A DNA stretch of 64,000 bases from Parvibaculaceae bacterium (GTDB lineage Bacteria > Pseudomonadota > Alphaproteobacteria > Parvibaculales > Parvibaculaceae), in NCBI GenBank assembly GCA_029209985.1, contig JARGNZ010000001.1, positions 65,982 through 129,981 on the forward strand. The letters are read 5' to 3'. Of this stretch, positions 7,917 through 45,585 are shown piece by piece. Position 1 is the first letter of the stretch. Every line of letters starts with the position of its first letter. The position numbers and the translations under genes are program-made. Below the pieces are notes generated by a model that saw only the letters and a program-made list of their open reading frames with translations, searched no databases and was not told the origin of the DNA.

Positions 7917-9644
7917 TTATTGCGCTGCGGCTGGTCTTTCTTGGGCGCCTCGGATCAACTTACCGCCAAGGATGCCTGTTGGCTCGCCTTCACGAAAGGC
8001 TACTTCTCCGTTGACCAATGTTGCGGTGTAGCCTTTGGCCCGTTGGATGAGGCGTTTTCCACCTGCAGGCAAGTCATGCACAATGGTGGGGGGAAAGAGG
8101 GTCAAATTATCGTAGTCGATGACGTTGATATCTGCACGCATTCCTACTTGTAAAACCCCGCGATCTTTGAGGCCTACCAGCTCTGCATTTTTTTGGGTTT
8201 GTCCATGGATGACCCATTCGATTGGTAATTTGGGGCCACGCGTTCGATCCCGGGTCCAATGGGTGAGAAGAGTGGTTGGGAAGCTGGCATCGCAAATGAT
8301 GCCAACATGCGCGCCGCCATCTCCTAAGCCGAAGGCCGTGTTTGGGTGGGTAAGCATTGTATGCACATGGTCGAGGCTGCCCTCAAGATAGTTCATGAGT
8401 GGGAAATACATCAGGGCATTTCCGTTGTCTTGCAACATCATGTCCAAAATAACTTCACGTGGGTCTTTGCCGCTTTGTTCGGCTTTGGCCGCCACGCTGT
8501 TTTTTGGCTCTGGCTCATAATTGACGGGATTACCCAGCTCGAACATTTTGTGATGGCCGGTACAGAGCAGGGTGATGATTTCGCCCTCTGGGTAGGTGGG
8601 CTCTTCGGCAAGTAGGCGGGCGCGGAACGCGGGGTCCTTGAGGGCTTCCACTTGTTTTTCAAGCGGTGCATGGCCGATCTCTCGGAATGTTGAATGCATG
8701 ATAAATGGATTGAGGGAGGCGGTAAGGCCCATCAATAAGCCAGTTGCGCGCGGCGGTACTTGGCCTTGCATTGGCAGCCCGTCGTTTGCTGCTTTTTCGA
8801 TATGATCTAAGACTTGCTTCCAAACAGTTGGATAGCGATCGTCTTGTTCAATCGTCAAGGAAAGGGGGCGGCCAGAGGCTTCGACCATGCCGCGAATAAG
8901 TGCGAATTCTTCGTCTACATCCCGGAAGTCGGCGATCAGCTGTAAAACACCTTTTCCGGTTTTGCCCATCGCACGGGCGATGCCATGCAGTTCATCTGCC
9001 TCAGACTTAAAGCTGGGGGTATGATCGCCATTTGCGGCCCGGTGTTTTTCGGTGCGAGAGGTACTAAAACCCAATGCTCCGGCCTCTAACGCTTCAACCA
9101 CCAGTTGGGACATTTCTGAAATGTCGGTTGGGTTGGCCGGTTCCAAATCCGCCCCCCGTTGGCCCATGACGTAAGCCCGCAAGGCGCCATGGGGAACTTG
9201 TACGCCGATGTCTATTGAGAGGGGTGAGGTTTCTAGTGTGTCCATATATTCAGGCACACTTTCCCATCGCCAATCAATGCCTTCTGCCAAGGCCGTGCCG
9301 GGAATATCTTCTACGCCTTCCATCAAACCGATGAGCCAGTCTTGTTGGTCTGGTTTGCACGGGGCAAAGCCGACGCCGCAATTGCCCATGATGGCTGTTG
9401 TTACCCCGTGGCAGGTGGAGGGCTGGAGATAGGGGTCCCATGTGACTTGGCCGTCGTAGTGGGTGTGCACATCGACAAAGCCGGGGGTCACAATTTGGCC
9501 TGCGGCATTTATTTCTTCGCGGGCTGGGGCATCAATTGTGCCGATTACTGTGATGATGCCGTTGTCTATTGCGATGTCTGCGCTGAGGGGTTTTGAGCCT
9601 GTCCCGTCATAGACGGTGCCGCCGCGAATGATGATGTCGTGCAT
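7917..9644 (-). CDS. N-acyl-D-amino-acid deacylase (D-aminoacylase) family amidohydrolase
   Basis: MHDIIIRGGTVYDGTG...IVTPGFVDVHTHYDGQ...AIMGNCGVGFAP is characteristic of this family. Strong SD (GGGAGGATACC) lies before the ATG at 9644. Confidence 0.85.
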   Translation of the reverse strand: MHDIIIRGGTVYDGTGSKPLSADIAIDNGIITVIGTIDAPAREEINAAGQIVTPGFVDVHTHYDGQVTWDPYLQPSTCHGVTTAIMGNCGVGFAPCKPDQQDWLIGLMEGVEDIPGTALAEGIDWRWESVPEYMDTLETSPLSIDIGVQVPHGALRAYVMGQRGADLEPANPTDISEMSQLVVEALEAGALGFSTSRTEKHRAANGDHTPSFKSEADELHGIARAMGKTGKGVLQLIADFRDVDEEFALIRGMVEASGRPLSLTIEQDDRYPTVWKQVLDHIEKAANDGLPMQGQVPPRATGLLMGLTASLNPFIMHSTFREIGHAPLEKQVEALKDPAFRARLLAEEPTYPEGEIITLLCTGHHKMFELGNPVNYEPEPKNSVAAKAEQSGKDPREVILDMMLQDNGNALMYFPLMNYLEGSLDHVHTMLTHPNTAFGLGDGGAHVGIICDASFPTTLLTHWTRDRTRGPKLPIEWVIHGQTQKNAELVGLKDRGVLQVGMRADINVIDYDNLTLFPPTIVHDLPAGGKRLIQRAKGYTATLVNGEVAFREGEPTGILGGKLIRGAQERPAAAQ

Positions 9645-9715
9645 GGTATCCTCCCAAATCCTTGCTAATGTTTTGGCAAGCATAGCGCAGACGGAGGAGG
9701 GTGCCCAATAAAATG

Positions 9716-10659: not shown

Positions 10660-11544
10660 TTAGTCAAAGAGGGCGTCGATGTCGTCTTGATCAATCGGTT
10701 CTCCGGCAGGTTCTTCTTCTTTTGCAAGGTTACTCGAAGCACTTACATGTGCCTGCGAAGCTGCCACTTTAGAGGTGCTTTCTTTTTTAGATGGGTCTGG
10801 CATGGCATCCCCATTGAGCATGGCGTCAATATCGTCTTGCGATACGCCTTCGCCGTCCATTTGTGGGCCATTGAGGAGGTGTGCATCTGGACGTGTTTCC
10901 ATATCCGCGATGTCGGGGGTTTGAGTGTGGCTTGCTTCTTCCACGACGCCCCAGATTTGGATCATTGCATTTACGCGTTGCTCCAAGTAACGCAACACAT
11001 TGACGACTTTTGTTGTGCGTTGTCCTGTAATGTCTTGGAACGAACAGGCCATAAAAATGCCCGTGGCGTGGGTGTCAATCTCGTCGCAAATGTCTTCATC
11101 AACACCGGATTCACGCAATTTTTCTCCGATGTCTTGCAGACGCTCGGTTGCACTCAAAATATCAGATGTGGCGCGTTCTGTGGCGGTGACAATGGCGTCC
11201 AGCTCTTCGGTCGCGGCCATGATGCGGTTGTCATCATCATTTTGCGGCTTAATGGCGGAAATTTCAAAACGCGTTTGTTGAATGGATGAGCTCATTTCTT
11301 GCAGCTCCCGGCGCAACACATCTAAGTGTGCATTCGCAGGATCTGTCTCGCCCACTGAATTTCCTAGGCTGGTAATGGCTTCCAATAATTGGTCGGTGTC
11401 AGCATTGCGATTGCGCCGTGCATATTCTTCCAAGAACCACCGCCCTCTGGGCGTGTCGAGGACGGCCTCTTTGATCGCATTGAATTCAACATCAGTGTTG
11501 ATTGGAGCTGATTTTTCGCTAATTGCTGTCATTTTCTCTAACAC
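10660..11544 (-). CDS. cheZ: CheZ-like CheY-P phosphatase
   Basis: The FQDITGQR motif (ACSFQDITGQRTTKV) matches the catalytic D..Q box of CheZ (E. coli FQDLTGQ). The acidic C-terminal peptide IDQDDIDALFD resembles the CheY-binding tail. Confidence 0.75.
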   Translation of the reverse strand: MLEKMTAISEKSAPINTDVEFNAIKEAVLDTPRGRWFLEEYARRNRNADTDQLLEAITSLGNSVGETDPANAHLDVLRRELQEMSSSIQQTRFEISAIKPQNDDDNRIMAATEELDAIVTATERATSDILSATERLQDIGEKLRESGVDEDICDEIDTHATGIFMACSFQDITGQRTTKVVNVLRYLEQRVNAMIQIWGVVEEASHTQTPDIADMETRPDAHLLNGPQMDGEGVSQDDIDAMLNGDAMPDPSKKESTSKVAASQAHVSASSNLAKEEEPAGEPIDQDDIDALFD

Positions 11545-12511: not shown

Positions 12512-13145
12512 GCCCATGACGTTGAAGGGCGTGTTGTCTCATATGCCAATTATGGCGATCTTGCGAGGGTTGACGGAAGAGGCTGCCCCGGAAGTGGGGC
12601 GCGGCCTATATGCGGCTGGTATTCGGTTTATGGAAGTGCCTCTTAACGGCGCGGGTGCGTTGAACGCACTGGCGGCCCTGCGCGCGTCAATGCCTGACGA
12701 TGTTTTGGTGGGAGCGGGCACGGTGTTGCATGAAACGCAAATTGAGCACGTGCTGCAAGCAGGCGGCGAAGTGATTGTTAGTCCTCATTTCGACCCTGCC
12801 TTGGTTGCACAGGCCAAAAAATGTGGGCTGATTTCTGTGTCCGGTGTTTTTACGCCAAGTGAAGCCTTTGCTGCGTTGAAGACAGGGACTGATGGGTTGA
12901 AACTTTTTCCGGCAGATGATTTGTCTCCAGCGGTGCTTAAAGCATGGCGCAGCGTATTACCTTTGATGGATGTTCCTATTTTGCCAACGGGCGGTATTTC
13001 ACGAGAGACCGTTGCGGCGTGGTGGGCGGTCGGCGCCTCAGGTTTCGGGGTGGGGTCCGGTGTCTATCAGCCTGACTTGCGGGGAGACGCGATTGAAACC
13101 CATGCAACGCGATTTACCCGTGCAGTTGGGGAGCTAACACGGTAG
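12504..13145 (+). CDS. 2-dehydro-3-deoxy-6-phosphogalactonate (KDPGal)/KDPG-type aldolase
   Basis: MPIMAILRGLTEEAAPEVGRGLYAAGIRFMEVPLNGAG...KLFPA... follows the DgoA/Eda family pattern. The ATG at 12504 overlaps the FAH stop by 8 nt. The longer ORF from 12369 lies inside the FAH gene. Confidence 0.75.
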   Translation: MTKPMTLKGVLSHMPIMAILRGLTEEAAPEVGRGLYAAGIRFMEVPLNGAGALNALAALRASMPDDVLVGAGTVLHETQIEHVLQAGGEVIVSPHFDPALVAQAKKCGLISVSGVFTPSEAFAALKTGTDGLKLFPADDLSPAVLKAWRSVLPLMDVPILPTGGISRETVAAWWAVGASGFGVGSGVYQPDLRGDAIETHATRFTRAVGELTR

Positions 13146-13237
13146 TCTGCGCGCCACAAACCTATCGCCGAGACCAAGCGTCAGTGTTTGGTCTGCTCCA
13201 ATACTGGATATTGCTGGCCTAAAAGAAGAGTTGAATT

Positions 13238-13864
13238 ATGGAATTGCCGATTGATGTATCAGAGGTCAAAGGATTTTTGGACCCTGCAGAGGGCGCTGCG
13301 CTTTATGAGGCGGCGTTAGAGGTCAGCAAAATGGGGCCGTGCCTTGAGGTTGGATCTTATTGCGGCAAATCGACCGTTTATTTTGGTGCAGCCTGTCAGA
13401 AGAATGAGGCGATTCTTTATGCGTTGGATCACCATTTAGGCTCTGAAGAAAACCAAGTGGGGTGGGAACATCACGACGGAGACCTTTTTGATGATGAAAC
13501 TGGGATGCTCAATACTTTCCCGTTGTTTCGGCGCACAATGCGCAAGGCCAAATTGGAAGATACGGTTGTGCCTTTGGTCGCCCCATCAACTGTTGTAGCC
13601 CGTGGTTGGGCGACGCCGCTTTCTATGGTGTTCATTGATGGCGGCCATGCGCTCGAACATGCGCTCAATGATTATCGATTTTGGGCACCGCAAGTTGTTG
13701 TGGGCGGGACTTTGGCGATCCACGACGTGTTCCCGAACCCGGAAGATGGCGGGCGGCCTCCTTATGAAATCTATAAGATGGCGTTGGCTTCAAACTTGTT
13801 TGAAGAAATCGCGGCTGTGAAATCGTTGCGGTTGTTACGCCGTCTCGGGCAAGTGCAAGCCTGA
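13238..13864 (+). CDS. class I SAM-dependent (cation-type, Methyltransf_24-like) O-methyltransferase
   Basis: CLEVGSYCGKSTVYFG (SAM motif I-like), VFIDGGH and LAIHDV motifs in 208 aa. Its 3' end overlaps the convergent barrel gene by 30 nt. Confidence 0.75.
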   Translation: MELPIDVSEVKGFLDPAEGAALYEAALEVSKMGPCLEVGSYCGKSTVYFGAACQKNEAILYALDHHLGSEENQVGWEHHDGDLFDDETGMLNTFPLFRRTMRKAKLEDTVVPLVAPSTVVARGWATPLSMVFIDGGHALEHALNDYRFWAPQVVVGGTLAIHDVFPNPEDGGRPPYEIYKMALASNLFEEIAAVKSLRLLRRLGQVQA

Positions 13865-14917
13865 GAACAGGGGAGCTGCTGGGGTTGAGCCGGTGATTGC
13901 GTCGGTTGCCAGAATAACAGCGGCGGCGGTCCATGCTGGTTTTTCAGCTGGCCATGCGACATCATCTTCAAACTGATAACCCATCCAGTACGCCCCACAG
14001 TCTGCGCGCCATTGGTGTAGCCAAGAAAGCATCAGCTCGGCGCGTGGTCGGTCCCCTGCGGTCAACAAGGCCATGACCAGCTCTGCTGTTTCTGCGACCG
14101 TCACCCACGGTTGTTCCATGACACAGCGGCAGCCTTTGCCCTGCGCCACAAAAATATCCCACTTCGCATTGAGGCGATCGTGGGCGGCTTTGCCAGTGAT
14201 GGCGCCTGCGAGTACGGGGTAGTACCAGTCCATGGAGTAGCGTTCTTTGCTTTCCCATGTGCGGTCAAACCGATGTGGTTTGTCACGGAGTGCTTCGCCT
14301 AATTTTTTACGGGCATGCATCCAGTCTTTGGTTGGCTCTCCCAGTTTTTGTGCAATTAAGATGGCGCACTCTAGGCTTTTATAAATTGAAGCACTGCCGG
14401 TGATGAGGGCATCATCTTCGGGGGTGCGAGGTTCGTCGGCTGCCCACCGAATGTCACCGTGGGCGCTTTGGTGAGCCACCACCCAATTGATTGCTTGTTT
14501 GACATGCGGCCAAAGATTTTTGAGTTCGGCTAAATCTTGGGTCAGCAGGTAATAATGCCATGCGCCTGTTGCGATGTAGGCCGCAAAATTGGTGTCGCGT
14601 AAGGGGGCTTCTATGTCTTCTTCTTTGCCGGTGAATTTCTGTTCTTCGTCATCCATTGGCACTGCAGAGCCTAATTCACCGAACCATGAGCCGTCATCGA
14701 GTTGGCTGTCTTGTAGGAAGCGGTAAGCTTTTTTTGCAGGCTCTAGGTGCCCCAAGGTGGCAAGGCCCATTGCTGCTTCGGTGTGGTTCCACGGATCTAC
14801 GACGCCGCCATCATACCAAGGGATCGCCCCGGTATCACGTTGCAGTTCGAGAATACGTTTGATCGAGCCATCGAAAAAGCCGTCAGGTATCGGATCACCA
14901 AGGGTGAGAAGGGTCAT
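13835..14917 (-). CDS. alpha/alpha-barrel protein (of the kind usually auto-annotated as prenyltransferase/terpene-cyclase-like); possible glycan hydrolase
   Basis: 360 aa with repeated W/Y-rich helical hairpin segments (GAIPWYDGGVVDPWNHTEAAMGL, DDGSWFGE, GAWHYYLLT, HGDIRWAADE, MDWYYPVLAG). It is 3 nt downstream of the methyltransferase gene. Confidence 0.6.
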   Translation of the reverse strand: MTLLTLGDPIPDGFFDGSIKRILELQRDTGAIPWYDGGVVDPWNHTEAAMGLATLGHLEPAKKAYRFLQDSQLDDGSWFGELGSAVPMDDEEQKFTGKEEDIEAPLRDTNFAAYIATGAWHYYLLTQDLAELKNLWPHVKQAINWVVAHQSAHGDIRWAADEPRTPEDDALITGSASIYKSLECAILIAQKLGEPTKDWMHARKKLGEALRDKPHRFDRTWESKERYSMDWYYPVLAGAITGKAAHDRLNAKWDIFVAQGKGCRCVMEQPWVTVAETAELVMALLTAGDRPRAELMLSWLHQWRADCGAYWMGYQFEDDVAWPAEKPAWTAAAVILATDAITGSTPAAPLFSGLHLPETA

Positions 14918-14920
14918 GGA

Positions 14921-15637
14921 TTAGCTGGCCGGTTTTGTGAAATAAAGAACAACACTTTTGCCCATCAACGGCGCGGCAATTGCTTCAAGCACGCGTACGA
15001 TGAAAGGGTTTTCGGTAATTTCCCAGACGAGAAGGCGGTGGTATAATTTTACCAAGAAGTTGTCGTTGTTTTTAACGCCAACTGCGCACTTGATCCACCA
15101 ATAGGGGGAGTGCAAACCGTGGGCCCAATGGCGCAACATAAAGCGGAGGCCATTTGCCTCTACGTCTTTGCGCAATTTGCCAGAGCGGAAGATGCGCACA
15201 TGGCCACCGGGTTCATTGTGATACTCTTCGGAAAGCGCCCAGCAAATCCATTCGGGCCAATAGCGTGGCACAGAAACAGCAAAGGTGCCGCCGGGTTTTA
15301 GAATCCGTTCGACTTCACTCAACGCCTGAACATAGTCAGGGATGTGTTCCATCACTTCAGAGCACAATACCTTGTCGAAGGAATTGTCAGCAAAGGGCAA
15401 GGACAGCGCGTTACCAACCGACAGCGTGTTGAGGCGTTTGGTTTCTGGGTCCATGTCCGGGCAATGGACAAAGCCATCGCGGGTTTTCTTTACATCATCA
15501 AAGGCGAGGTCCAAGCCAACGACGTGGCAGACTTTGTGATGATACATGGCATGTACGTGCCGACCTTCGCCGCAGCCAAGATCCAGAACGGTGTCACCGT
15601 CTTTAAGTCCGAGCGCGTTTAGATTGATTGTTTGCAT
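14921..15637 (-). CDS. class I SAM-dependent methyltransferase (Methyltransf_11 type)
   Basis: TVLDLGCGEGRH (motif I), VLCSEVMEHIPD and LKPGGTFAVS. The ATG at 15637 (MQTINLN) has a GAGG box upstream. The longest ORF extends to 15670. It overlaps the 3' end of the GT4 gene. Confidence 0.85.
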   Translation of the reverse strand: MQTINLNALGLKDGDTVLDLGCGEGRHVHAMYHHKVCHVVGLDLAFDDVKKTRDGFVHCPDMDPETKRLNTLSVGNALSLPFADNSFDKVLCSEVMEHIPDYVQALSEVERILKPGGTFAVSVPRYWPEWICWALSEEYHNEPGGHVRIFRSGKLRKDVEANGLRFMLRHWAHGLHSPYWWIKCAVGVKNNDNFLVKLYHRLLVWEITENPFIVRVLEAIAAPLMGKSVVLYFTKPAS

Positions 15638-17087
15638 TAGCAATGGCCTCACGATAGATCGCGACAACATTACGTGCCGCGTGTTCCCATTTGAATTTAG
15701 TTAGAATCCGCTCACGTCCGGCGCGGCCCACTTCAGCGCGTTTTTCCGGGTTGTTCAGCAGATCTGCAATCGCCGCTGCCAAAGCATCCGGGTCGGAGTG
15801 CTGCACAACGATTGCAGCATCCCCAGCAACTTCTGGCAATGAGCCGCCGTTGGTTGTGATGACTGGCGCACCGCAACACATTGCTTCGCCCGCAGGAAAG
15901 CCGAAGCCCTCATATACAGAGGGGGAGATGGCAATGGTGGCTTCAGCGTATTCGTCCACGAGCTGGCTATCGCTGAGGCCGGTTTTCCAGATCACTTTGT
16001 CCATGATGCCAAGCTTGCGCAGTTCTTTAGCCGTTGGCCCTTCGCGGAGCTTTCCGATGACAACCAGTTTGAGGTCTGGATGATCGGGTAACAGTTTTGC
16101 GTAGGCGCGCAGTAAGAAGATTAAGCCCTTGAGGGGGACATCTGCACTTGCACAGACAACCAGTTGATTATCAACGCGGGTGATGTGGGGGCGAGGCTCG
16201 AAGACTTCATGATTGATGCCGTGATAAACGGTTTTCATGTTTTCTTCTTTGACACCGAACTCGCGCACGACATCTCGCTTGGTACTGTCTGACACAACAA
16301 TCACCGGGCGTAATTGACGCGCCACTTTGATTTGCATGTTGAGGAAGGTGTACCAGCGCCATTTTAGAAATTTCATCCATGGGTTTGGCATGGCTGCAAC
16401 ATCGATGCGGCGGTCCATGGTGATTGGGTGGTGGATGGTGCCTGCTACTGGTAGGCCCATGTCGCGCACTTTCAACATGCCCCAGCATAAGGTCTGATTG
16501 TCATGCATAACGTCGTATTGGTCGATCTTGTCTTCCATATATTTGGCCATGCGTTCGCCAAACGTGTACGGCTCTGGAAAACCACCCCAGTTGTGGCTCC
16601 ACCATTCGAACAGGTCGAGGGGGGAGGTGAGCATCCACGGACGAAAGGCCCGGATGGGATGAGGGGTTGCGTAGAGGTCGAGTGATGGCAATTCGATCAA
16701 GCCAACGCGCGGATCCAAGTCAGGATATGGCGGGCCGGAAATGACATCCACATGATGGCCTAGCTCAACAAGCGCTTTTGAAATGTGGCGCATGTAAACG
16801 CCCTGTCCACCGGTTGTTGGATTTGACCGGTAAGACGGGAGCAAAATGCGCAACGGCGCACCGTCGTCGCTGTCGCCTGTTTGAACATTGGCCGGGGCGA
16901 GGGGAACAACCTTTTCAGATTGTTGCTCGGGCACCGAACTCTCTTCGGTCGTCGGATTTCCGTCCAGAGCCTTGGACATGCGCCTCTCCTTCATGCCGAC
17001 CTTTTGCATGTGCGCCTTTATCTTTTGATGCAGGCATTGGCAAATGTCGGTTGTGTCTGTGCCTATTGGCAGATTTTGAGGCGACAT
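15603..17087 (-). CDS. GT4-family (GT-B fold) glycosyltransferase
   Basis: GGQGVYMRHISKALVELGHHVDVI (N-domain) and SPSVYEGFGFPAGEAMCCGAPVITT (E-x7-E retaining GT4 motif). The start is uncertain: ATGs at 17087, 17009, 16994 and 16979, and the N-terminal ~75 aa are low-complexity. Confidence 0.85.
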   Translation of the reverse strand: MSPQNLPIGTDTTDICQCLHQKIKAHMQKVGMKERRMSKALDGNPTTEESSVPEQQSEKVVPLAPANVQTGDSDDGAPLRILLPSYRSNPTTGGQGVYMRHISKALVELGHHVDVISGPPYPDLDPRVGLIELPSLDLYATPHPIRAFRPWMLTSPLDLFEWWSHNWGGFPEPYTFGERMAKYMEDKIDQYDVMHDNQTLCWGMLKVRDMGLPVAGTIHHPITMDRRIDVAAMPNPWMKFLKWRWYTFLNMQIKVARQLRPVIVVSDSTKRDVVREFGVKEENMKTVYHGINHEVFEPRPHITRVDNQLVVCASADVPLKGLIFLLRAYAKLLPDHPDLKLVVIGKLREGPTAKELRKLGIMDKVIWKTGLSDSQLVDEYAEATIAISPSVYEGFGFPAGEAMCCGAPVITTNGGSLPEVAGDAAIVVQHSDPDALAAAIADLLNNPEKRAEVGRAGRERILTKFKWEHAARNVVAIYREAIANANNQSKRART

Positions 17088-17163
17088 ATGTCATCCCCGC
17101 GCTTGAAACGCGGAAACCCACACTCCTAGCTTAAATTTGGCCGGATCATACCGAAGGGAGCGG

Positions 17164-17197
17164 CTGACAACAAGTCAGAGGCTGACATATATGTCAG
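17164..17197. promoter_or_regulatory. two adjacent palindromes sharing CTGAC/GTCAG arms
   Basis: CTGACaacaaGTCAG (17164-17178) and CTGACATATATGTCAG (17182-17197) lie between the membrane-protein stop and the GT4 start. This could be a terminator and/or an operator. Confidence 0.35.
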
Positions 17198-17211
17198 GGG
17201 AATTGCCCTTT

Positions 17212-17604
17212 TTAAGAGATTTGGGCATCTCCGAGGAAATATCTGGCGAGATCCACGTAGTCGAACCCTAAAGACACGGCATTTGTGACGATGAGGAGCC
17301 AGAAATATATGCCTGTGATGCTGGGCAGCGCAAAATGCGCCCGCCGCCCGAGGAGATAGACCAGAAGGGGGGTCCATACGATGATATGTGCGAGGCCAAG
17401 CAGGCGCACGAAACCAAATTGATCGTACAGGTAGGGCATGATGATTATGCCGTTAAGTAACCATGCGGCTAGGGTCCAGCGTGCTTCTACTCTATGGATG
17501 ATGAAGAGAATGGAAGCTGTGTTGATAATCATCAGCCAATACACCCAATAAAGAATCGCGGGCGGTTGTGCCATGATTTGACTGAATAATGTCGGTGCTT
17601 CCAT
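17212..17604 (-). CDS. small polytopic membrane protein, unknown function
   Basis: About 130 aa with 4 predicted hydrophobic helices (ILYWVYWLMIINTASILFII..., AAWLLNGIIIM..., LLGLAHIIVWTPLLVYLL, IYFWLLIVTNAVSLGF). SD GAGGGGA lies before the ATG at 17604. Confidence 0.6.
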   Translation of the reverse strand: MEAPTLFSQIMAQPPAILYWVYWLMIINTASILFIIHRVEARWTLAAWLLNGIIIMPYLYDQFGFVRLLGLAHIIVWTPLLVYLLGRRAHFALPSITGIYFWLLIVTNAVSLGFDYVDLARYFLGDAQIS

Positions 17605-17693
17605 TGTCGTTCCCCTCTGTCCTTCTCTTTGGTGTGTCATTAGACGGCAAAATTTTATGAGGGCAAATCACAAGTGCGTCAGTCGTGAGGGGG

Positions 17694-18152
17694 CTATTCC
17701 TCAGGGTCTAAACGCCAGCCGCCTTTGCGCAGTACGAGGCGCATCACAAGATAAGCCAGCAAACCCATTGGGCCGAGTAGGCAGGTGAGGATGAGGCAGG
17801 GAATAAGAAGAAGGTGCGGGACACCACGCTTTTGCGCATCTCTGGCTTCCCATGCCCCGACAAAGAGATCGAAGACAAGATAATGTATCCAACCTGCAAA
17901 AAGGGCCGGGGGCGAACTGAAGAGGATTGCTAATTCTTCAAGTGAGCCAAAGCCGCCTCCTTCGGGTGCATTGGGAGCAAAAAAACTGCCCCCCAATGCG
18001 AAGGCGGAATAGACCACACCGATTGCGAGTGGATAGAGCATAGAATGCACAAGGACGTTTGTGCCCTGCCAGCGTGGGGCCACGATCAATAAGAGCCAAA
18101 ATGGAACAATGCTCAAATTGGCAATTTGAAATGCTGTGCTCAAGTCGATCAT
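17694..18152 (-). CDS. DUF4281 / ABA4-like membrane protein
   Basis: 152 aa with 4 TM segments. The motif WIHYLVFDLFVGAWEARDA and the N-terminal ANLSIVPFWLLLIVAPRW match my memory of the ABA4-like (PF14108) family. Confidence 0.65.
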   Translation of the reverse strand: MIDLSTAFQIANLSIVPFWLLLIVAPRWQGTNVLVHSMLYPLAIGVVYSAFALGGSFFAPNAPEGGGFGSLEELAILFSSPPALFAGWIHYLVFDLFVGAWEARDAQKRGVPHLLLIPCLILTCLLGPMGLLAYLVMRLVLRKGGWRLDPEE

Positions 18153-18179: not shown

Positions 18180-19163
18180 TTACTTTGCAGGAAAACGGCG
18201 TTGAAGCCAATCAATCATGAGGGCGTTCAGTGCTTCGGGTTGTTCTGATTGGGTCCAATGTCCACAATCTGGGATGATGTGTGTTTCTAGGTCTGGACAA
18301 TATTGTTCCATACCTTCTGCGTGTTCGGGGCGCAGTACAACATCGTTTGCGGCGCAAATCATTAGGCAGGGGGCGGCGACGTGCTCTGGCACATCTTCGC
18401 TGCGTTCCCAATTTCGGGTCCAATTGCGATACCAATTGATAGGGCCGGTAAAGCCGGTTTTGGCGAAGGCGTTGGCGTAATAGGCTTCGTCTTCAGCATT
18501 GAGCAAACTTGTGCCCTGCCAGTCGGCTTCTGGTGTGTTGAAGCCCTTGACCAGTTCAAAGTTCTTTTGATCTTCGGGAAGGGCGTCAAAGTCAGCTAGG
18601 GTCATTGGGGATTTGCGAAACCAAAAGCGCATGGTGCGGGCAGGGTCTTTATTAAATAGGGCATCGGCCACCCCAAACTTTTGGAAGTACACGATATACA
18701 TGTCGTCCCCGCGAAACTGGCGCATGAGTGCAATGGGGTCCATCGGAAGTCGGGCCATGAAGGGTGTGTTGACCCCAATCACTCCAGCGACGCGGTCTGG
18801 GTGGCGCTGAGCTAATTGCCAGACAATGAGACCGCCCCAGTCGTGTCCCACAAAGACTGCTTTTTTAATGCCTTTGGCGTCTAACATGCCCAGTAAGTCT
18901 GCGATGAGGTGTTCTACATCATAAAGCGGCACAGAAGCTTCATCGGTTGGGCCGCCCGTGTTGCCGTAGCCCCGCTGATCGGGGGCAATGGTGTGGAAAC
19001 CGGCTTGGGCAAGGGCGGGGAGTTGTTTCCGCCATGAATAGGCTAGTTCTGGAAAGCCATGGCAGAGGATGACGGGCACGCCTGCTTCATTTTCCCCTTG
19101 TTCATAAATGGCCATTTTGATGCCATTGGTGTCTATATAGGTTGGGGTATCAAAGAGTGACAT
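18180..19163 (-). CDS. alpha/beta-fold epoxide hydrolase-like protein
   Basis: The HGFPELAYSWRKQ (HGxP oxyanion motif), GHDWGG (Asp nucleophile elbow) and CGHWTQSE (His) arrangement is typical of soluble epoxide hydrolases and haloalkane dehalogenases. Confidence 0.8.
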   Translation of the reverse strand: MSLFDTPTYIDTNGIKMAIYEQGENEAGVPVILCHGFPELAYSWRKQLPALAQAGFHTIAPDQRGYGNTGGPTDEASVPLYDVEHLIADLLGMLDAKGIKKAVFVGHDWGGLIVWQLAQRHPDRVAGVIGVNTPFMARLPMDPIALMRQFRGDDMYIVYFQKFGVADALFNKDPARTMRFWFRKSPMTLADFDALPEDQKNFELVKGFNTPEADWQGTSLLNAEDEAYYANAFAKTGFTGPINWYRNWTRNWERSEDVPEHVAAPCLMICAANDVVLRPEHAEGMEQYCPDLETHIIPDCGHWTQSEQPEALNALMIDWLQRRFPAK

Positions 19164-34382: not shown

Positions 34383-35522
34383 GTGGACGGTGAGGCTCTT
34401 TCTTTCCATGTGATTGATGAAAATGGCACTTTTCAGGTGGATTTCGCCGGAGAGTGGACCGTTCGGCATGTTCAAAGTGTGGATGATCGGCTGAAAACCA
34501 TACACAGCCAGCGGGTTGCGGGTCGAGAGGCTGTCTTGTCCTTGGGCGAGGTTTCACGGTTAGATACGGCTGGGGCTTGGATGATTGAACGCACGGCGTC
34601 TCAATTGGAAGCGCTTGGTTTTACAGTTCGCCGGGCTGGGGTTTCACCAGTTCAGCAAGCTTTATTGGACGCGATTGAGCACACGGGCACATCTATAGAG
34701 ATGCATCCAAATGAAGGCCCTTGGTATATTGCTGTGTTGGAACGCATGGGTGCGACGGTTCGCCAGATCGGTAACAACATTCTTGAACAGCTTGCATTTT
34801 TTGGTCTTGTGATTACCACTTTGGGGCGTGCCATACGGCGGCCAAGCCGGTTGCGGGTTGTGCCATTGGTGCACCATATGGAAAAGGCTGGTCTTGATGC
34901 GTTGCCAATTGTGGCGCTGATGACATTTTTGATTGGTGCTGTGATTGCCCAACAAGGAGCGGTGCAACTGCAAAAGCTTGGGGCTGAAGTCTATACGGTC
35001 AATTTGGTGGCGATTGTATTTTTGCGTGAGGTGGGACTATTGCTGACCGCCATCATTGTGGCTGGGCGCTCTGGGTCTGCTTTTACCGCTGAGATTGGGT
35101 CGATGAAAATGCGCGAAGAGGTGGATGCCATGCGCACTCTAGGGTTAGACCCTATTGAGATGCTGGTGGTGCCGCGCGTTTTGGCACTTGTGATTACCCT
35201 GCCTCTTTTGACCTTTATAGGCGACATTGTGGGATTGATTGGGGGCGGTGTGGCTGTTTGGACCATGCTGGATACAACTCCGGATGCGTATTTGGTGCAA
35301 TTGCGGGAGGCGTCAGGTTTTTGGACCTTTGGGGTGGGCTTGCTCAAAGCCCCCTTTATGGCGCTGGTGATTGCGATGATCGGGTGTCGTGCGGGTTTGA
35401 ATGTGTCAGGTTCGGCGGAATCTGTGGGGCGTCAAACAACCAGTTCGGTCGTGCAATCAATCTTTATGGTTATCGTGCTTGATGCGGCATTTGCCATATT
35501 CTTCACCGGGGTGGGGATTTGA
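34383..35522 (+). CDS. MlaE-family ABC permease with an N-terminal STAS (MlaB-like) domain
   Basis: The C-terminal ~260 aa are MlaE-like (GAVIAQQG, IVAGRSGSAFTAEIGSMKMREEVDAM). The N-terminal ~110 aa look like STAS (FAGEWTVRHV..., LSLGEVSRLDTAGAWMI). GTG start. Confidence 0.85.
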   Translation: MDGEALSFHVIDENGTFQVDFAGEWTVRHVQSVDDRLKTIHSQRVAGREAVLSLGEVSRLDTAGAWMIERTASQLEALGFTVRRAGVSPVQQALLDAIEHTGTSIEMHPNEGPWYIAVLERMGATVRQIGNNILEQLAFFGLVITTLGRAIRRPSRLRVVPLVHHMEKAGLDALPIVALMTFLIGAVIAQQGAVQLQKLGAEVYTVNLVAIVFLREVGLLLTAIIVAGRSGSAFTAEIGSMKMREEVDAMRTLGLDPIEMLVVPRVLALVITLPLLTFIGDIVGLIGGGVAVWTMLDTTPDAYLVQLREASGFWTFGVGLLKAPFMALVIAMIGCRAGLNVSGSAESVGRQTTSSVVQSIFMVIVLDAAFAIFFTGVGI

Positions 35523-35523
35523 T

Positions 35524-36318
35524 ATGAGCCAAACGTCTAGACATACAAACGAACAAGACGATTTCATTATTCAGGTTCGCGGCCTTGACAATAGTTTTGA
35601 TGGGCATGTCGTGCATCAAAACCTTTCGCTTGATGTGAAGCGAGGGGAAATTCTAGGGATTGTTGGGGGCTCTGGGACAGGTAAGTCTGTTTTGTTGCGC
35701 TCCATTGTGGGTTTGCGCGAACCCCAAGCCGGGGATTTGTCTGTTTTTGGCCAGCGCCTAAAAGACCTGACGGAAGATGAACGCCAAGCTATCGAGCAGC
35801 GGTGGGGCATCTTGTTTCAGGACGGGGCGTTGTTTTCTGCGTTGAGTGTGGCGGAAAATGTGCAAGTTGCTTTCAGAGAGCATCTGTCTATGAAGCCTAG
35901 CCTTATGGATGAATTGGCGGGATTGAAAATTCGGCTGGTGGGGCTTGATGAGGGGGCCTGTAGTAAATATCCGTCAGAGCTGTCTGGGGGGATGCGTAAG
36001 AGAGCGGGGCTGGCGCGGGCTTTGGCATTGGACCCGGAGATTGTTTTTCTGGATGAGCCAACGGCTGGTCTTGACCCCATTGGTGCCCACGCTTTTGATA
36101 TGTTGATTAAGGATTTGCAGCGTGCACTGGGGCTAACCGTCTTTATGGTGACGCATGACTTGGATACGTTGTCGACGGTGTGTGACCGTATTGCTGTGCT
36201 GGCGGATAAACAGGTTATTTTAGTCGGCACGATGGATGATATGTTACAAAGTACCCATCCATGGGTGCGTGAGTATTTTCATGGGCCGCGTGCACGTGCT
36301 GCGCGATCTTCTGGATAA
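35524..36318 (+). CDS. ABC transporter ATP-binding protein (MlaF-like)
   Basis: Walker A GGSGTGKSV, signature LSGGMRKRAGLARAL, Walker B IVFLDEPTAGLD. The ATG lies 1 nt after the permease stop. Confidence 0.93.
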   Translation: MSQTSRHTNEQDDFIIQVRGLDNSFDGHVVHQNLSLDVKRGEILGIVGGSGTGKSVLLRSIVGLREPQAGDLSVFGQRLKDLTEDERQAIEQRWGILFQDGALFSALSVAENVQVAFREHLSMKPSLMDELAGLKIRLVGLDEGACSKYPSELSGGMRKRAGLARALALDPEIVFLDEPTAGLDPIGAHAFDMLIKDLQRALGLTVFMVTHDLDTLSTVCDRIAVLADKQVILVGTMDDMLQSTHPWVREYFHGPRARAARSSG

Positions 36319-36406
36319 GCTGATCGGACGATGTGTTTGACGGCTGTTTAAGCGATAAGTAGTAGATGTGGGCCGGGCCCGCGCAAAGGCCCTGAAGGGA
36401 AATAAA

Positions 36407-37351
36407 ATGGAAATACGGTCCAACAATGTTTTGATTGGTGGTTTTGCACTTCTGGTTGTTCTTGGGGCCTTTTTGTTTTCGTTCTGGATTGCGCGTGTGC
36501 AAATCAACCGAACCTTCAATCATTATGAAGTCGTATTTCAAGGGTCTGTTTCTGGGCTGACGGATGGCGGCAGTGTGCAATATAACGGTATTCGTGTGGG
36601 TAAGGTTGTAGACCTGCGGTTGGATGAAAAAGACCCCAGCCGGGTGATTGCGCTCATTAGAACGGAATCTGCCACGCCGGTTAAAACCGATACTAAGGTG
36701 AGTTTGCAATTTACCGGCCTGACCGGCGTTGCTTTGATACAGCTAGAGGGTGGCTCGCAATCGGCGCCGCGTTTGGTGCGGAAAAAGGGGCAGCGTCACC
36801 CTATTATCATTGCCGAACCATCCGCGTTTCAGGAACTTTTTGAAAGCGCACCAGCTGCTTTGGATAATGCCAATAAGTTGATTATCGACTTGCAGGAAAT
36901 GGTGAAGCAAAATCAGAAGAATGTATCTGGCATTGTGAAAAATGTAGAGACGTTGACGGCGGAACTTGCGGGCAGCTCTGCTGACATTAAGCAGACCTTG
37001 CGCAATGTAAACGATATCACCGGAAATGTTGCTCGTGCTTCTGATAGCTTGGAGCGGTTGGCAAAAACCAGTGAAACTTTGCTGGCCGGAGATGTGGCGG
37101 GTGTTGTGCATGAAGCGCGCAAGGCTGTTAAAGCTTACCGTGCGCTTGGGGATGAGCTTGGCCAGATCATGCAGGACAACAGGGCTTCTATCGATAGCTT
37201 TACGCGTGACGGCCTTGGAGAGGTTCCGCTTTTGCTGGAAGATACGCGTAAATTGATTGATACGCTGGAGCGTATTGCGAAGACAGCCGAGGACAATCCG
37301 GGCCAATATCTACTTGGTAAAGATGTCGTTGAATATGATGTGCCACGTTGA
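36407..37351 (+). CDS. MlaD/MCE-domain substrate-binding protein
   Basis: N-terminal TM (NNVLIGGFALLVVLGAFLF), MCE domain (GSVSGLTDGGSVQYNGIRVGKVVDLRLD) and a helical C-terminal region. Confidence 0.88.
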   Translation: MEIRSNNVLIGGFALLVVLGAFLFSFWIARVQINRTFNHYEVVFQGSVSGLTDGGSVQYNGIRVGKVVDLRLDEKDPSRVIALIRTESATPVKTDTKVSLQFTGLTGVALIQLEGGSQSAPRLVRKKGQRHPIIIAEPSAFQELFESAPAALDNANKLIIDLQEMVKQNQKNVSGIVKNVETLTAELAGSSADIKQTLRNVNDITGNVARASDSLERLAKTSETLLAGDVAGVVHEARKAVKAYRALGDELGQIMQDNRASIDSFTRDGLGEVPLLLEDTRKLIDTLERIAKTAEDNPGQYLLGKDVVEYDVPR

Positions 37352-37393
37352 GCTGACTGGTGCGAGTGAATGAGCGTAGGACAGGATAGTAGG

Positions 37394-38101
37394 ATGGCAC
37401 GGGCAAATATGACAATGGTCACAGGTACGCAGACTGCTGCGCGTAAGCGGACATCTTTAAAGCGCGCTTCTTCCCTTGCCGCTTTAGGTCTTCTCGGCAT
37501 GAGCCTTTTGTCGGGATGTGCTTTGGTTGATATTGGCGCTGGTGAGCCTGCGCGGATGTTTGTGATTACGCCTGTGACGGTGGACCGTGTGAACGTGCCA
37601 CACGCGCGAACAGCGGTTACCATCAAAGAGCCGTATGCAGCGGCAGAAGTTAATACACCCAAAATTCTTTATCGCCCTTCGGCTCATGAAGTTGTCTATA
37701 TCGGCAATGTGCGATGGTCGGATACAGCGCCGGTGATTTTTCAAACGGCATTGATTGATACATTTGAGCAGTCTGGCAAGTTTGATGCAGTGGCACGCAC
37801 GGGGAGTGGTTTGCGGGCGCGTTATGACGTGCAGTCGGAGTTGAGGGAATTTGGTTTTACTCAGCAAGACGGCAAAATGATTGCTGGTGTGGACTTGCGT
37901 GTGAGCCTTGTTGATATGCACAAGGGACGGCTGATTGCGGCGACACGCTTTGCCGCTGAGGCGCCAAGTGCTGGTAAAACACAAGACGACCTGATCCTTG
38001 CCTTAGACGGTGTGAGCGACGATGTGATGAGCCAGCTTACCATTTGGGCCGCTCAGACGTTGTCGGCGCATACTCAATCGGCTGAACTTGCGGGCGGTTA
38101 G
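37394..38101 (+). CDS. ABC-type transport auxiliary lipoprotein (PqiC/DUF330-like)
   Basis: Lipobox LLSGC after a positively charged N-region. It occupies the fourth position of the Mla/Mce-like operon, as is typical for this family. Confidence 0.7.
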   Translation: MARANMTMVTGTQTAARKRTSLKRASSLAALGLLGMSLLSGCALVDIGAGEPARMFVITPVTVDRVNVPHARTAVTIKEPYAAAEVNTPKILYRPSAHEVVYIGNVRWSDTAPVIFQTALIDTFEQSGKFDAVARTGSGLRARYDVQSELREFGFTQQDGKMIAGVDLRVSLVDMHKGRLIAATRFAAEAPSAGKTQDDLILALDGVSDDVMSQLTIWAAQTLSAHTQSAELAGG

Positions 38102-40509
38102 CTCAAGTGACCGCTGGCTTGTGCAAGCATGAGATAGACTTTGCCTGTGTCGGATGTGAGATATGTTTCCACAAGGATATTGTCTCGGTCCCGCTCTGAG
38201 GCGTGGAGCATCAACTTTTCAAATAAACGAATGAAGCGTTGCACGTCGTCCCGGAATTCTGGTTCGCGTGAAAAACGCTCGGCGATGGTGTCGTATAATT
38301 CGCGGCCTTGCAAATTATAGAGACGGCGGGCAAATACATTGCGTTCCCCTTGTTGGTACCGTTGCCATAGCTCTGCAGGAGGGCTTTGTTCGAGGGCGCG
38401 GTCCAGGTCAACGGCTAGGGATTGCAGCGTTTCGATGATGTGCAATGAGGTGCGGTTGAACTCTTGTTCGTCGAGTGGCTTTTCGGTTGAGGGGCCTTCG
38501 GACTGACGGGCCGCAGAGAGCAAATCAGAAAGCGACCACTTGCCACCTGCTTTTTTCGGTTTCGTGTTATCGGCAGGCGTGTGTGCTGACCGTGGCGCTG
38601 CCATTTGCGGTGCGGCTGGAACGTAGGTGCGCGCTGCATTATCTAATGAGGGAGTGGACGTAGAGGCGGGCGCATTCTTGTCGAATGTGCGCGAATGGCG
38701 GACCACAATTTCTGCAATGGAGGCCAGCGTCGTGATTTGTTCCTCAAGGACGGTTTGGAGAGCTTGTGCGCCTTCTGCTGCCTCATGGGGTAATGTTTGC
38801 ATACGTGTTTCGAGGTCTTCGCTTGCGGATTGCAATGTGCGTGTTGCGTCGCGGGCAGCCCCACCAATGCGGAACATCACACTGTTGAGCTTTTCGCCCA
38901 CGCCTTCGAGGTCAGAAGCGGTGCTCTGAACAGTGCCTCTGATGTCGTCTGTGCGGTGCGTGACTTCTGCTTGCATGGCGTCGGCAGCTTGCAGAACAGC
39001 TTGATTTATTTCGGCCGAACTTGTCGTTAGGTCTTTTGCCAATAGATCCATCTGGTCGCGTAACATTGACGCCATTGTGCTGGTTTGCTGGTTGATGGCT
39101 GAATTGAAGACTTCTGTCTCTGAGGTGAATGTTGCTTTTAAGGCGCCGGTTGCTTGACGGATGTTGCTTTCAATCGCTTCAGACTCTTTACGTACCGTAT
39201 CTGCAAGGTGAGTGATTTCTACTTGGGTTTTTCCCGTCAGCTCGCTCATGTCGCGGGCGGCTTTCTCGGATTGTTTGGAAATATCAACGGCGTTGTTTTT
39301 TAATTCGGTGGCCACTGATTTGACGCGGTCTGAGGCACTGCGCAGGGTGTCTTCAATGTTGATGCCCGCTCCCTTGGCCGCAAGGCCGATCCGCTCAGCT
39401 TCGCTTTGGAAGGTTTTTCCTAATTCCGTTGTGCGTTTGGCAGCGGTTTCCATGGCATGGCTCAACTCAGTGGAGAGTGTGCTCACGGATGCATTGATGT
39501 CTGCGGTACGGGCCGCCAGCTCTGCACTTGTTGTTTCAATGGTGGCGCGTTGGCGTTCAAAGGTGGTCTCGAGGTGTTGCCGCTCATTTTCAAGGGATTG
39601 GCTGGCAGCCACCAGATTTTCACGTTGGTTTTCGTACCGTTGAGACAGCGCATCTGCTTTGTTTAGGGCTGCACTGGCGACAACTTCCAAGCGTGAAGAT
39701 TGGCGGTCGAGCATAACGGTTGTATTGTCGGCACCGGCTGCTGCGGTTTCGGTGATACGGGAGAGGGCTTCTGTTTGTTTACGCAACCGTTCTAAGTTGG
39801 CGTTCATAACTTCTTCGGCTTTGCGGGTCACAGAACGCACTTCATCTGTTTGAGTGCGGACGGCGCGGCTGATGGTGTCGCTTTCTTGCCCAAGCTTTCC
39901 TGAAATTTCATCGATTGTTGCGCGGTTGCGTGTGAGGGCATCGCCAATTTCTCTTGCGCGCAATTCTGCGCGTAGAGCAGAGCGATCGACACTGTCTAAT
40001 CGTTTGCTAAACATGTCGTCGAGGGTTTGGGTTTGCTCAAAAACTTCTTGGAGGCCCGCATTCATTTTTTCAATTTGAATGCGAATGGTTGAGGACATCG
40101 AGGAAATACGTTCTTCAGCTAATTCTTCTGGTTCCGTTAGGCGCAGGGCCGCACGGGCCAATGCGTCTGACATCATATGGAGGTGCTGGGTGCGCCAGCT
40201 CATATAGGCAAGTGCCCAAATCAGAAATGTCGGGACAAGAGCGCCGATGATCACAGGCATCCAAGTGGTTGCCGGGCGTTCTAGGACTGTTTCGCCGTAG
40301 AGGCCCCAAAGATAAGCTGCTGCAGTGGCCAAAATGAAAACGGTTGCCACGGCTGCCATGTGAAAAATAGTGCGCGTTGGCTTTCGATTAATCAGTCGAT
40401 AAAGCTCGCCCGCCGCTGGATTGTCCTCGTTGGCAGGTTGTGCCCGGTCAGAGGACGGGGCAGGGAGCGTGTTTAAGACGGGCTGATCGCGCCGATCTAT
40501 TTGATTCAT
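38098..40509 (-). CDS. large coiled-coil membrane protein (two N-terminal TM segments, ~550-aa apolipoprotein-like helical repeats, conserved C-terminal domain)
   Basis: 803 aa. TM segments are IFHMAAVATVFILATAAAYLW and MPVIIGALVPTFLIWALAYM. A long Ala/Glu/Thr/Ser/Arg-rich heptad-like region follows. The C-terminal block is ELWQRYQQGERNVFARRLYNLQGRELYD... Confidence 0.75.
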   Translation of the reverse strand: MNQIDRRDQPVLNTLPAPSSDRAQPANEDNPAAGELYRLINRKPTRTIFHMAAVATVFILATAAAYLWGLYGETVLERPATTWMPVIIGALVPTFLIWALAYMSWRTQHLHMMSDALARAALRLTEPEELAEERISSMSSTIRIQIEKMNAGLQEVFEQTQTLDDMFSKRLDSVDRSALRAELRAREIGDALTRNRATIDEISGKLGQESDTISRAVRTQTDEVRSVTRKAEEVMNANLERLRKQTEALSRITETAAAGADNTTVMLDRQSSRLEVVASAALNKADALSQRYENQRENLVAASQSLENERQHLETTFERQRATIETTSAELAARTADINASVSTLSTELSHAMETAAKRTTELGKTFQSEAERIGLAAKGAGINIEDTLRSASDRVKSVATELKNNAVDISKQSEKAARDMSELTGKTQVEITHLADTVRKESEAIESNIRQATGALKATFTSETEVFNSAINQQTSTMASMLRDQMDLLAKDLTTSSAEINQAVLQAADAMQAEVTHRTDDIRGTVQSTASDLEGVGEKLNSVMFRIGGAARDATRTLQSASEDLETRMQTLPHEAAEGAQALQTVLEEQITTLASIAEIVVRHSRTFDKNAPASTSTPSLDNAARTYVPAAPQMAAPRSAHTPADNTKPKKAGGKWSLSDLLSAARQSEGPSTEKPLDEQEFNRTSLHIIETLQSLAVDLDRALEQSPPAELWQRYQQGERNVFARRLYNLQGRELYDTIAERFSREPEFRDDVQRFIRLFEKLMLHASERDRDNILVETYLTSDTGKVYLMLAQASGHLS

Positions 40510-43016: not shown

Positions 43017-43308
43017 TCCATGGTTTGGGTTGTCTGTTTATAAGGGGCTGGGGAAAAGGTGAAAAGCTTATCTTCGAGTTGGGGCCCGAGTGGGGTTTTG
43101 CCCCATCCGGTGCTGATTATGGCTTTCGGGTAGAAATGAAGGCGTTTTAGCGTTAATAAGCTCTTAAATGAAGGGGCTGTTAACCAATTTTCTCGTATCT
43201 TGAGGGCAGACAGGTGGCCCACTCATAGGGCTATGATCCTTTTGGAAAGGTGCCCTTGTGTCTCAAATAGACACTTCTTTGGCTGATGCGCCGAGGCTCG
43301 TGCCCGGC

Positions 43309-45584: not shown

Positions 45585-45585
45585 A

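Follow-up and report, generated by a model that had tools for sequence, protein, structure and literature searches.

In the literature, methylmannose polysaccharide (MMP) and methylglucose lipopolysaccharide (MGLP) are said to be found only in mycobacteria and a small number of their actinobacterial relatives. What, then, would a complete set of MMP-like genes be doing in an alphaproteobacterial genome? The question is raised by four open reading frames (ORFs) at positions 13238-17087 of a 64-kb stretch of contig JARGNZ010000001.1 (the window, to which all coordinates below refer unless another locus is named), part of a metagenome-assembled genome (MAG) from a marine-type member of the alphaproteobacterial family Parvibaculaceae. 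The original prediction, made from the DNA letters alone, had read these ORFs as an MMP-like cluster in a proteobacterium, on the premise that polymethylated polysaccharides are regarded as an actinobacterial trait. The literature searched takes the same view, the host is indeed alphaproteobacterial, and all four ORFs are present where they had been placed:

15603-17087, minus strand: GT4 glycosyltransferase, homologue of ManT (494-aa ORF; Pfam Glycos_transf_1, 4.6e-33, and Glyco_transf_4, 4.3e-21)
14921-15670, minus strand: Methyltransf_11 protein, homologue of MeT3 (249-aa ORF; Pfam Methyltransf_11, 5.6e-21)
13835-14917, minus strand: (alpha/alpha)6-barrel protein, homologue of MmpH (360 aa; match to PDB 7QSJ)
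13238-13864, plus strand: Methyltransf_24 protein, homologue of MeT1 (208 aa; Pfam Methyltransf_24, 7.4e-21)

The block thus reads ManT>MeT3>MmpH> <MeT1. Only 3 nt separate the stop codon of the MeT3 homologue from the start of the barrel gene, and the convergent mmpH and meT1 homologues share 30 nt at their 3' ends (13835-13864); both spacings had been noted originally. The motifs that had drawn attention to these proteins are also there, EGFGFPAGEAM in the glycosyltransferase, VLDLGCGEGRH in the Methyltransf_11 protein, and EVGSYCGKST with VFIDGGH in the 208-aa protein.

To identify the four products, each window protein was searched with phmmer against all PDB sequences. The best match of the glycosyltransferase was ManT of Mycolicibacterium hassiacum (7QSG, a structure released with the MmpH study; E=6.3e-104, residues 78-484), with the next GT4 enzyme at 5.7e-19. 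The barrel protein had a single strong match, MmpH (7QSJ; E=1.2e-83, residues 21-358), and the 208-aa protein matched only M. hassiacum MeT1 in the whole PDB (6G7D/6G80/6H40; E=5.6e-60, residues 9-204). E-values of this size place the similarity well outside what chance would give. Matches of the MeT3 homologue were generic (best 1.8e-13), because there is no solved MeT3 structure. A search with the 7QSJ sequence led to a reference locus on a Mycolicibacterium contig (L083), in which the relevant genes are as follows:

L083 4054-5289, plus strand: ManT
L083 5283-6008, plus strand: methyltransferase in the MeT3 position
L083 6001-7065, plus strand: MmpH
L083 7062-7766, minus strand: Methyltransf_24 protein (MeT1)

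Ripoll-Rozada and coworkers (PNAS, 2019) reportedly described the mycobacterial MMP cluster as meT1-mmpH-meT3-manT in M. hassiacum and M. smegmatis. The same cluster is given for these two species by Maranha et al. (2023, Commun Biol; PMC9883506). The order ManT-MeT3-MmpH-MeT1 given in the original prediction is the order found in L083, where MeT1 is likewise convergent.

All four window proteins are full-length homologues of the mycobacterial enzymes, and the block shares with the mycobacterial cluster its gene order, orientation, convergent MeT1, and overlapping gene ends. Identity to L083 is 45% over 408 aa for ManT, 45% over 238 aa for MeT3 (to the gene between manT and mmpH; E=2e-78), and 51% over 194 aa for MeT1 (to the convergent gene). 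The two methyltransferases, for which only generic Rossmann similarity had been a worry, are therefore specific matches to MeT1 and MeT3, the latter at a score far from the 1.8e-13 of its best generic PDB match. The MeT3 alignment to L083 opens at Met12 (15637), a start also used in public gene calls, giving a protein of 238 aa. With this start the gene shares 35 nt with the 3' end of manT, which agrees with the overlap of about 35 nt noted originally; the 249-aa version that had been paired with that figure would overlap by 68 nt. Chance adjacency of a generic GT4 enzyme and two methyltransferases was ruled out by the gap in PDB scores and by synteny.

Conservation of the block was assessed in 80 loci, the best of at least 600 matches from a pattern scan based on an MmpH alignment with one genome per GTDB species. 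These comprised 20 loci from Alphaproteobacteria, 44 from Gammaproteobacteria, 9 from Syntrophaceae-type Thermodesulfobacteriota, 4 from unclassified Proteobacteria, and 3 from Streptomyces. Carriers among the Alphaproteobacteria include Parvibaculales, Rhodobiaceae, Micropepsaceae, Henriciella, Robiginitomaculum, Maricaulis, Phenylobacterium, and OCS116, and those among the Gammaproteobacteria include Halieaceae, Luminiphilus, Spongiibacteraceae, Cellvibrionaceae, Microbulbifer, Zhongshania, and Pseudomaricurvus. When synteny was read by tblastn of the four window proteins against these loci, 49 of 80 had the canonical arrangement, with ManT>MeT3>MmpH on one strand and a convergent MeT1 within 400 nt. 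Another 13 had the same block with MeT1 displaced by 1 to 5 kb (62 of 80 with all four genes), 9 were cut by contig ends, and 9 had ManT-MeT3-MmpH with no MeT1 within 1.5 to 7 kb downstream. Co-occurrence across Proteobacteria, which had been proposed as a check on the cluster, is thus borne out. No fifth gene conserved across phyla, and no conserved exporter, was found beside the block in the 80 loci, where neighbors were lineage specific only. Flanking genes are not common to different classes, so what is conserved is the block of four genes. A phmmer search run exhaustively over 1.84 billion cluster representatives returned 216 clusters (50% identity) at E<=1e-30. With ManT, MmpH, and MeT1 each matching a solved MMP enzyme, MeT3 matching its L083 counterpart, and order retained, the MMP-like interpretation is supported, and the window block is almost certainly an orthologous cluster of the actinobacterial MMP genes.

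Alignments of homologues from these loci provided a residue-level view. In M. hassiacum ManT, Lys240Ala and Glu321Ala substitutions abolish activity and Glu313Ala cripples the enzyme, and Gly15, His142, Gly314, Phe315, Leu317, Leu291, and Asp293 contact the donor (PMC9883506). Across 76 ManT homologues, G15, H142, K240, E313, G314, F315, and E321 were invariant. Their equivalents in the window protein are G93, H219, K320, E393-G394-F395, and E401, and the protein also keeps Asp293 (as D373); position 317 is Phe instead of Leu, as in most alphaproteobacterial copies. The enzyme is predicted to be a ManT-type alpha-(1->4)-mannosyltransferase of GT-B fold. Its ORF reaches 17087, with homology to ManT beginning at ORF residue 79; public gene calls place the start at 17009 (468 aa) or at 16979 (458 aa), and one of these two is probably the real start. 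The ORF N terminus (16854-17087) encodes a low-complexity acidic extension of about 40 to 78 residues that has no equivalent in mycobacterial ManT.

For MmpH, the catalytic base is Glu262 and the candidate acids are Asp47 and Asp50; Glu262Ala inactivates the M. hassiacum enzyme, Asp47Ala and Asp50Ala nearly do so, and the site is lined by Asn101, Trp49, Phe102, Thr163, Met215, Tyr219, Glu265, and Trp315 (PMC9883506). In an alignment of 80 homologues, D47, W49, N101, M215, Y219, E262, E265, and W315 were invariant, with D41 and E276 of the window protein aligned to D47 and E262. The positions at which substitution inactivates the M. hassiacum enzymes, D47 and E262 of MmpH and K240, E313, and E321 of ManT, were therefore conserved in all 76 to 80 homologues. 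This kinship predicts that the barrel protein is an MmpH-type endo-alpha-(1->4)-3-O-methylmannosidase.

Public databases give a different picture. The window proteins are named "prenyltransferase," "hypothetical protein," "class I SAM-dependent methyltransferase" (SAM, S-adenosylmethionine), and "O-methyltransferase YrrM" in NCBI and UniRef. Prenyltransferase and squalene-hopene cyclase toroids are, like the barrel protein, all-helical with Trp/Tyr-rich repeats, and the barrel carries one QW-like repeat. Unlike them, it has no DxDD, DDxxD, or NSE/DTE motif in a sequence motif check and no Pfam family above threshold (SQHop_cyclase_C, 17.4 bits versus a cutoff of 26.1), leaving the "prenyltransferase" label unsupported. 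A true prenyltransferase or terpene cyclase, an outcome that had been held open as fatal to the MMP interpretation, is ruled out by the absent Asp-rich motifs and the lack of any above-threshold family, and the protein aligns end to end with MmpH. A second set of relatives, GH15 and GH125 (clan GH-L), resembles MmpH at the fold level, in its inverting mechanism, and in a conserved catalytic base (PMC9883506). Membership in GH15 at the family level was rejected, as the barrel's NCBIfam scores were far under cutoffs (TIGR01577, oligosaccharide amylase, 27.5 bits versus 820.7; kojibiose hydrolase, 17 versus 800) and its sequence kinship is to MmpH.

Similar alignments of the methyltransferases revealed family signatures. 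MeT1 homologues (n = 67) share E37-G39-C42-G43-S45, D64-H65-H66-x-G68-S69-x-E71-x-Q73, F132-I133-D134-G135-x-H137, and H162-D163, and the 208-aa window protein is, by this homology, a predicted reducing-end 1-O-methyltransferase. The Methyltransf_11 protein is a MeT3 homologue and a putative 3-O-methyltransferase. Among 78 MeT3 homologues, 33 columns were invariant, and many of these lie in the C-terminal region of about 110 aa outside the Pfam domain (residues ~135 to 249), including C143, W144, Y150, G155-G156-H157, H184, H187, W191-W192, and C195. This region may be a family-specific substrate lid or metal site. Two members of the 216 clusters are single-protein MeT3-MmpH fusions (P0322, 590 aa; P0367, 606 aa), with MeT3 at residues ~1 to 240 and MmpH at ~275 to 588, providing an independent link between these two activities. 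The 585- to 617-aa "MmpH" ORFs of Streptomyces loci are not fusions; they are upstream ORF extensions in a frame different from that of MeT3.

If the window proteins act as their mycobacterial counterparts do, the product would be a short, soluble, intracellular chain of alpha-(1->4)-linked 3-O-methylmannose (PMC9883506). The ManT homologue would lengthen oligomannoside primers from GDP-mannose, with 3-O-methylated acceptors preferred, and the MeT3 homologue would 3-O-methylate the added mannoses. The MeT1 homologue would cap the chain by methylating the reducing-end 1-OH. Mature chains could then be cut internally by the MmpH homologue, giving oligomers from which new chains would be primed, a scheme called "partially conservative replication." Within the cytoplasm the polymer presumably binds long acyl chains or acyl coenzyme A (acyl-CoA), the role suggested for it in mycobacteria. 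Sugar, linkage, methylation positions, chain length, and physiological role would all follow by analogy with the mycobacterial system. None of the four proteins has a hydrophobic segment (maximum KD19, <=1.65), and signal peptides and transmembrane segments are predicted to be absent; the mycobacterial cluster likewise has soluble proteins and no export genes. With this analogy as a guide, the window block probably directs synthesis of an MMP-type polymer in the mycobacterial manner.

Every sequence-level feature of an MMP cluster that was tested was found in the window except Asp50 of MmpH, and this exception is among the observations that weigh against a mycobacterial-type product. The equivalent residue of the window protein is Asn44, and Asn occupies this position in 21 of 21 alphaproteobacterial copies, while 43 of the 44 copies from Gammaproteobacteria have Asp, as does every deltaproteobacterial and actinobacterial copy. 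The loop preceding N101/F102 is also longer in Alphaproteobacteria (27 to 31 residues, versus 16 to 19 elsewhere) due to an acidic insertion of 11 to 12 residues. With Asn50 and the extra loop, cleavage pattern or activity may differ from that of M. hassiacum MmpH. Asp293 of ManT, the proposed reader of guanine N2 in GDP-mannose (PMC9883506), varies across the family (Thr in 27 of 76 homologues, Asp in 13, other residues in 36). MeT3 activity is called "putative" even in mycobacteria (PMC9883506). Identities of 45 to 51% could leave room for a changed acceptor, linkage, or chain length. No GDP-mannose synthesis genes were found among the Pfam-scanned ORFs of the window, which lie between 7900 and 48000, and in the literature searched neither MMP nor 3-O-methylmannose oligomers are reported from a proteobacterium. 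The natural Asp50Asn variants are also relevant to the choice between the candidate aspartates for the catalytic acid of MmpH.

Beyond the window, some related clusters carry additional genes. A B12-binding radical SAM protein (~525 aa) is encoded between mmpH and a displaced meT1 in 8 of the 8 Syntrophaceae-type loci with enough sequence (L063, L069, L070, L071, L074, L076, L077, and L080; for example, L080:8063-10370), and in 5 of these 8 a hexapeptide-repeat acyltransferase gene precedes it. This suggests that the Syntrophaceae-type polymer is further modified, with C-methylation and/or acylation predicted from the gene content. The same acyltransferase family adjoins the block in five gammaproteobacterial loci (L036, at 8984-9706, L049, L050, L058, and L060) from Pseudomaricurvus, Microbulbifer, Pseudoteredinibacter, and Cellvibrionales, recalling Streptomyces griseus, whose product is an acetylated MMP, AMMP (PMC9883506). 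The loci lacking a nearby MeT1 (L020, L042 to L044, L049, L064, L076, L008, and L079) belong to Zhongshania, Spongiibacter, Cellvibrionaceae, Smithella, one alphaproteobacterium, and one Streptomyces. In these organisms MeT1 may be encoded elsewhere in the genome, or it may be absent and the reducing end uncapped. Among cultured carriers, Pseudomaricurvus hydrocarbonicus JCM 30134 (L036) and Microbulbifer agarilyticus S89 (L050) have all four genes; Zhongshania aliphaticivorans (L020) and Spongiibacter marinus DSM 17750 (L064) have three, MeT1 being the one not found close by.

Could the same enzyme family make a chemically different methylated glycan in this host, differing from MMP in sugar, linkage, methylation, length, or decoration, so that the product is MMP-like rather than MMP? 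The alphaproteobacterial D50N change and acidic loop, both at the rim of the MmpH active site, point this way, as do the Phe at ManT position 317 in most alphaproteobacterial copies and the family-wide variation at D293. The tailoring genes of related clusters (acyltransferases in five gamma- and five deltaproteobacterial loci and the B12-radical SAM gene in all eight Syntrophaceae-type loci) also imply that the family's product has already diversified. Set against this, all four enzymes are retained together in unchanged order, and ManT and MmpH show no variation in the residues that contact sugar or carry out catalysis. That MeT1 has been retained, with 51% identity, also argues for a reducing end that is still 3-O-methylmannose. 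The window cluster itself contains no acyltransferase or other extra tailoring gene. A chemically distinct product is on balance unlikely, though it is the most serious competitor of an MMP-type polymer.

Two other explanations fare much worse. The block could serve salvage or catabolism, breaking down MMP that actinobacteria release into the environment, as it encodes an endo-mannosidase for a methylated polymer and many carriers, judging from organism names, are marine or soil heterotrophs. However, all of the genes but one have biosynthetic products (a glycosyltransferase and two SAM methyltransferases), and signal peptides and membrane segments are absent from all four proteins. Genes for a transporter, a demethylase, or mannose catabolism are not conserved beside the block, and the mycobacterial hydrolase is itself needed for biosynthesis (PMC9883506). 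Salvage is therefore very improbable. Still harder to credit is an artefact, in which the barrel is really a prenyltransferase or cyclase or the MAG is chimeric or contaminated with actinobacterial DNA. The public "prenyltransferase" names, the subthreshold SQHop_cyclase_C match, the QW-like repeat, and the MAG source would fit such an error, but the missing Asp-rich motifs and the strength of the MmpH match contradict the first version of it. As for the second, the barrel protein recurs in identical form on 18 contigs (the longest 1.19 Mb) from several independent sources, and the block is surrounded by genes for CheZ, MreC, PBP2, RodA, and an enoyl-CoA hydratase, all proteobacterial and uniform in composition. 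GC content is 53.2% in the block versus 51.4% in the window, and GC at third codon positions is 0.53 to 0.60 versus 0.49 to 0.56 in adjoining genes. The closest relatives are all alphaproteobacterial (56 to 77% identical), while actinobacterial copies are only ~45% identical. Neighbor-joining trees group the sequences by bacterial class, which together with the unremarkable composition argues against recent transfer into this genome; since the trees lack bootstrap support, they allow no conclusion about the direction or age of transfer between phyla. Recent horizontal transfer and MAG contamination are, with these many independent contigs, unsupported.

An MMP-type cluster in the window can also be placed among known systems by its differences. 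Compared to mycobacteria, the host is Gram negative, MmpH has Asn for Asp50 and the acidic insertion, ManT has Phe for Leu317 and an N-terminal low-complexity extension of ~40 to 50 residues, and the flanking genes are unrelated. The MMP-type loci of Streptomyces (L078, L079, and L081) are collinear for ManT-MeT3-MmpH and 42 to 52% identical to the window proteins; in these, MeT1 lies 2.8 to 4.9 kb away or outside the 7-kb flank, and the S. griseus polymer is acetylated (PMC9883506). Unlike some gamma- and deltaproteobacterial loci, the window cluster has no acyltransferase gene. MGLP is a second intracellular polymethylated polysaccharide that has also been proposed to sequester acyl chains (PMC9883506, PMC2674218), but it differs in sugar, linkage, primer (glucosylglycerate), and enzymes, and no MGLP-specific component is present in the window block.

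The existing survey of MMP genes, from 2023, covered actinobacterial genomes only. In the full-text literature searched there was no report of MMP genes or polymethylated polysaccharides in Proteobacteria, though the 2019 PNAS paper may contain a remark. Given how many further Gram-negative bacteria carry this block, MMP, supposedly actinobacterial, is probably far more widespread than has been assumed. The pathway is mechanistically ordinary; its taxonomic reach is unexpected and bears on the old question of what the polymer does. Roles put forward for MMP and MGLP are sequestration of nascent acyl-CoA and modulation of fatty acid synthesis, to which cold adaptation was added more recently (PMC9883506, PMC2674218). 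A mycobacterial mmpH mutant has a cold-growth phenotype. Proteobacteria use type II fatty acid synthesis, so a role tied to type I fatty acid synthase (FAS-I) cannot be the whole story.

A broader proposal, which we consider to have about an even chance of being correct, is that MMP-type polymers are a widespread intracellular polymer of Gram-negative bacteria, serving to buffer acyl chains or hydrophobic substrates or to aid adaptation to cold, with chemically distinct lineage-specific versions. Its carriers would be Parvibaculales, Hyphomonadaceae, Halieaceae, Cellvibrionaceae, Microbulbifer, Spongiibacteraceae, and Syntrophus/Smithella-type syntrophs. One lineage version would have the alphaproteobacterial MmpH with Asn50 and extra loop, and another the deltaproteobacterial B12-radical SAM protein and acyltransferase. 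Under this proposal, carriers without FAS-I would imply a more general role for MMP. If true, MMP would leave the category of mycobacterial oddity, its function would be separated from the mycobacterial FAS-I and mycolate context, and cultured nonpathogenic hosts would become available for testing that function. A systematic misannotation would also be corrected, as thousands of proteins now called "prenyltransferase" or "hypothetical" are predicted by homology to be MmpH-type endomannosidases. Several carriers have names associated with hydrocarbon or fatty acid degradation (Parvibaculum, Zhongshania aliphaticivorans, Pseudomaricurvus hydrocarbonicus, Smithella, and Syntrophus).

Scans of the surrounding DNA added little to this picture. 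Promoter and terminator predictions across 12900-17700 were no more numerous than in shuffled sequence, and tRNA and Rfam scans of the window returned no matches, nor did exact-protein look-ups aimed at annotating the remainder of the window. Upstream of manT and on the same strand is an epoxide-hydrolase-like alpha/beta hydrolase gene (18180-19163, minus strand). A hydrolase about 50% identical is encoded upstream of manT in ~10 other alphaproteobacterial loci (L010, L011, L013, L014, and others), mostly directly adjacent, and it was not found at this position in loci of other classes. It may be a lineage-specific operon partner, or this may be mere synteny among relatives.

Other features of the window lie outside the block. 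The CheZ-family gene (PF04344, public gene call) lies at 10660-11544 on the minus strand of this alphaproteobacterial genome. An Mla-type lipid ABC transport set (MlaE, ATPase, MlaD, and an auxiliary lipoprotein) occupies 34383-40509, followed on the opposite strand by a gene for an 803-aa protein with a subthreshold apolipoprotein-repeat match (40 bits versus a cutoff of 90). A nonulosonic acid biosynthesis set of the sialic, legionaminic, or pseudaminic type is encoded at 43258-47345 on the plus strand, consisting of Epimerase_2, NeuB, a CBS-domain nucleotidyltransferase, and a CMP-type cytidylyltransferase.

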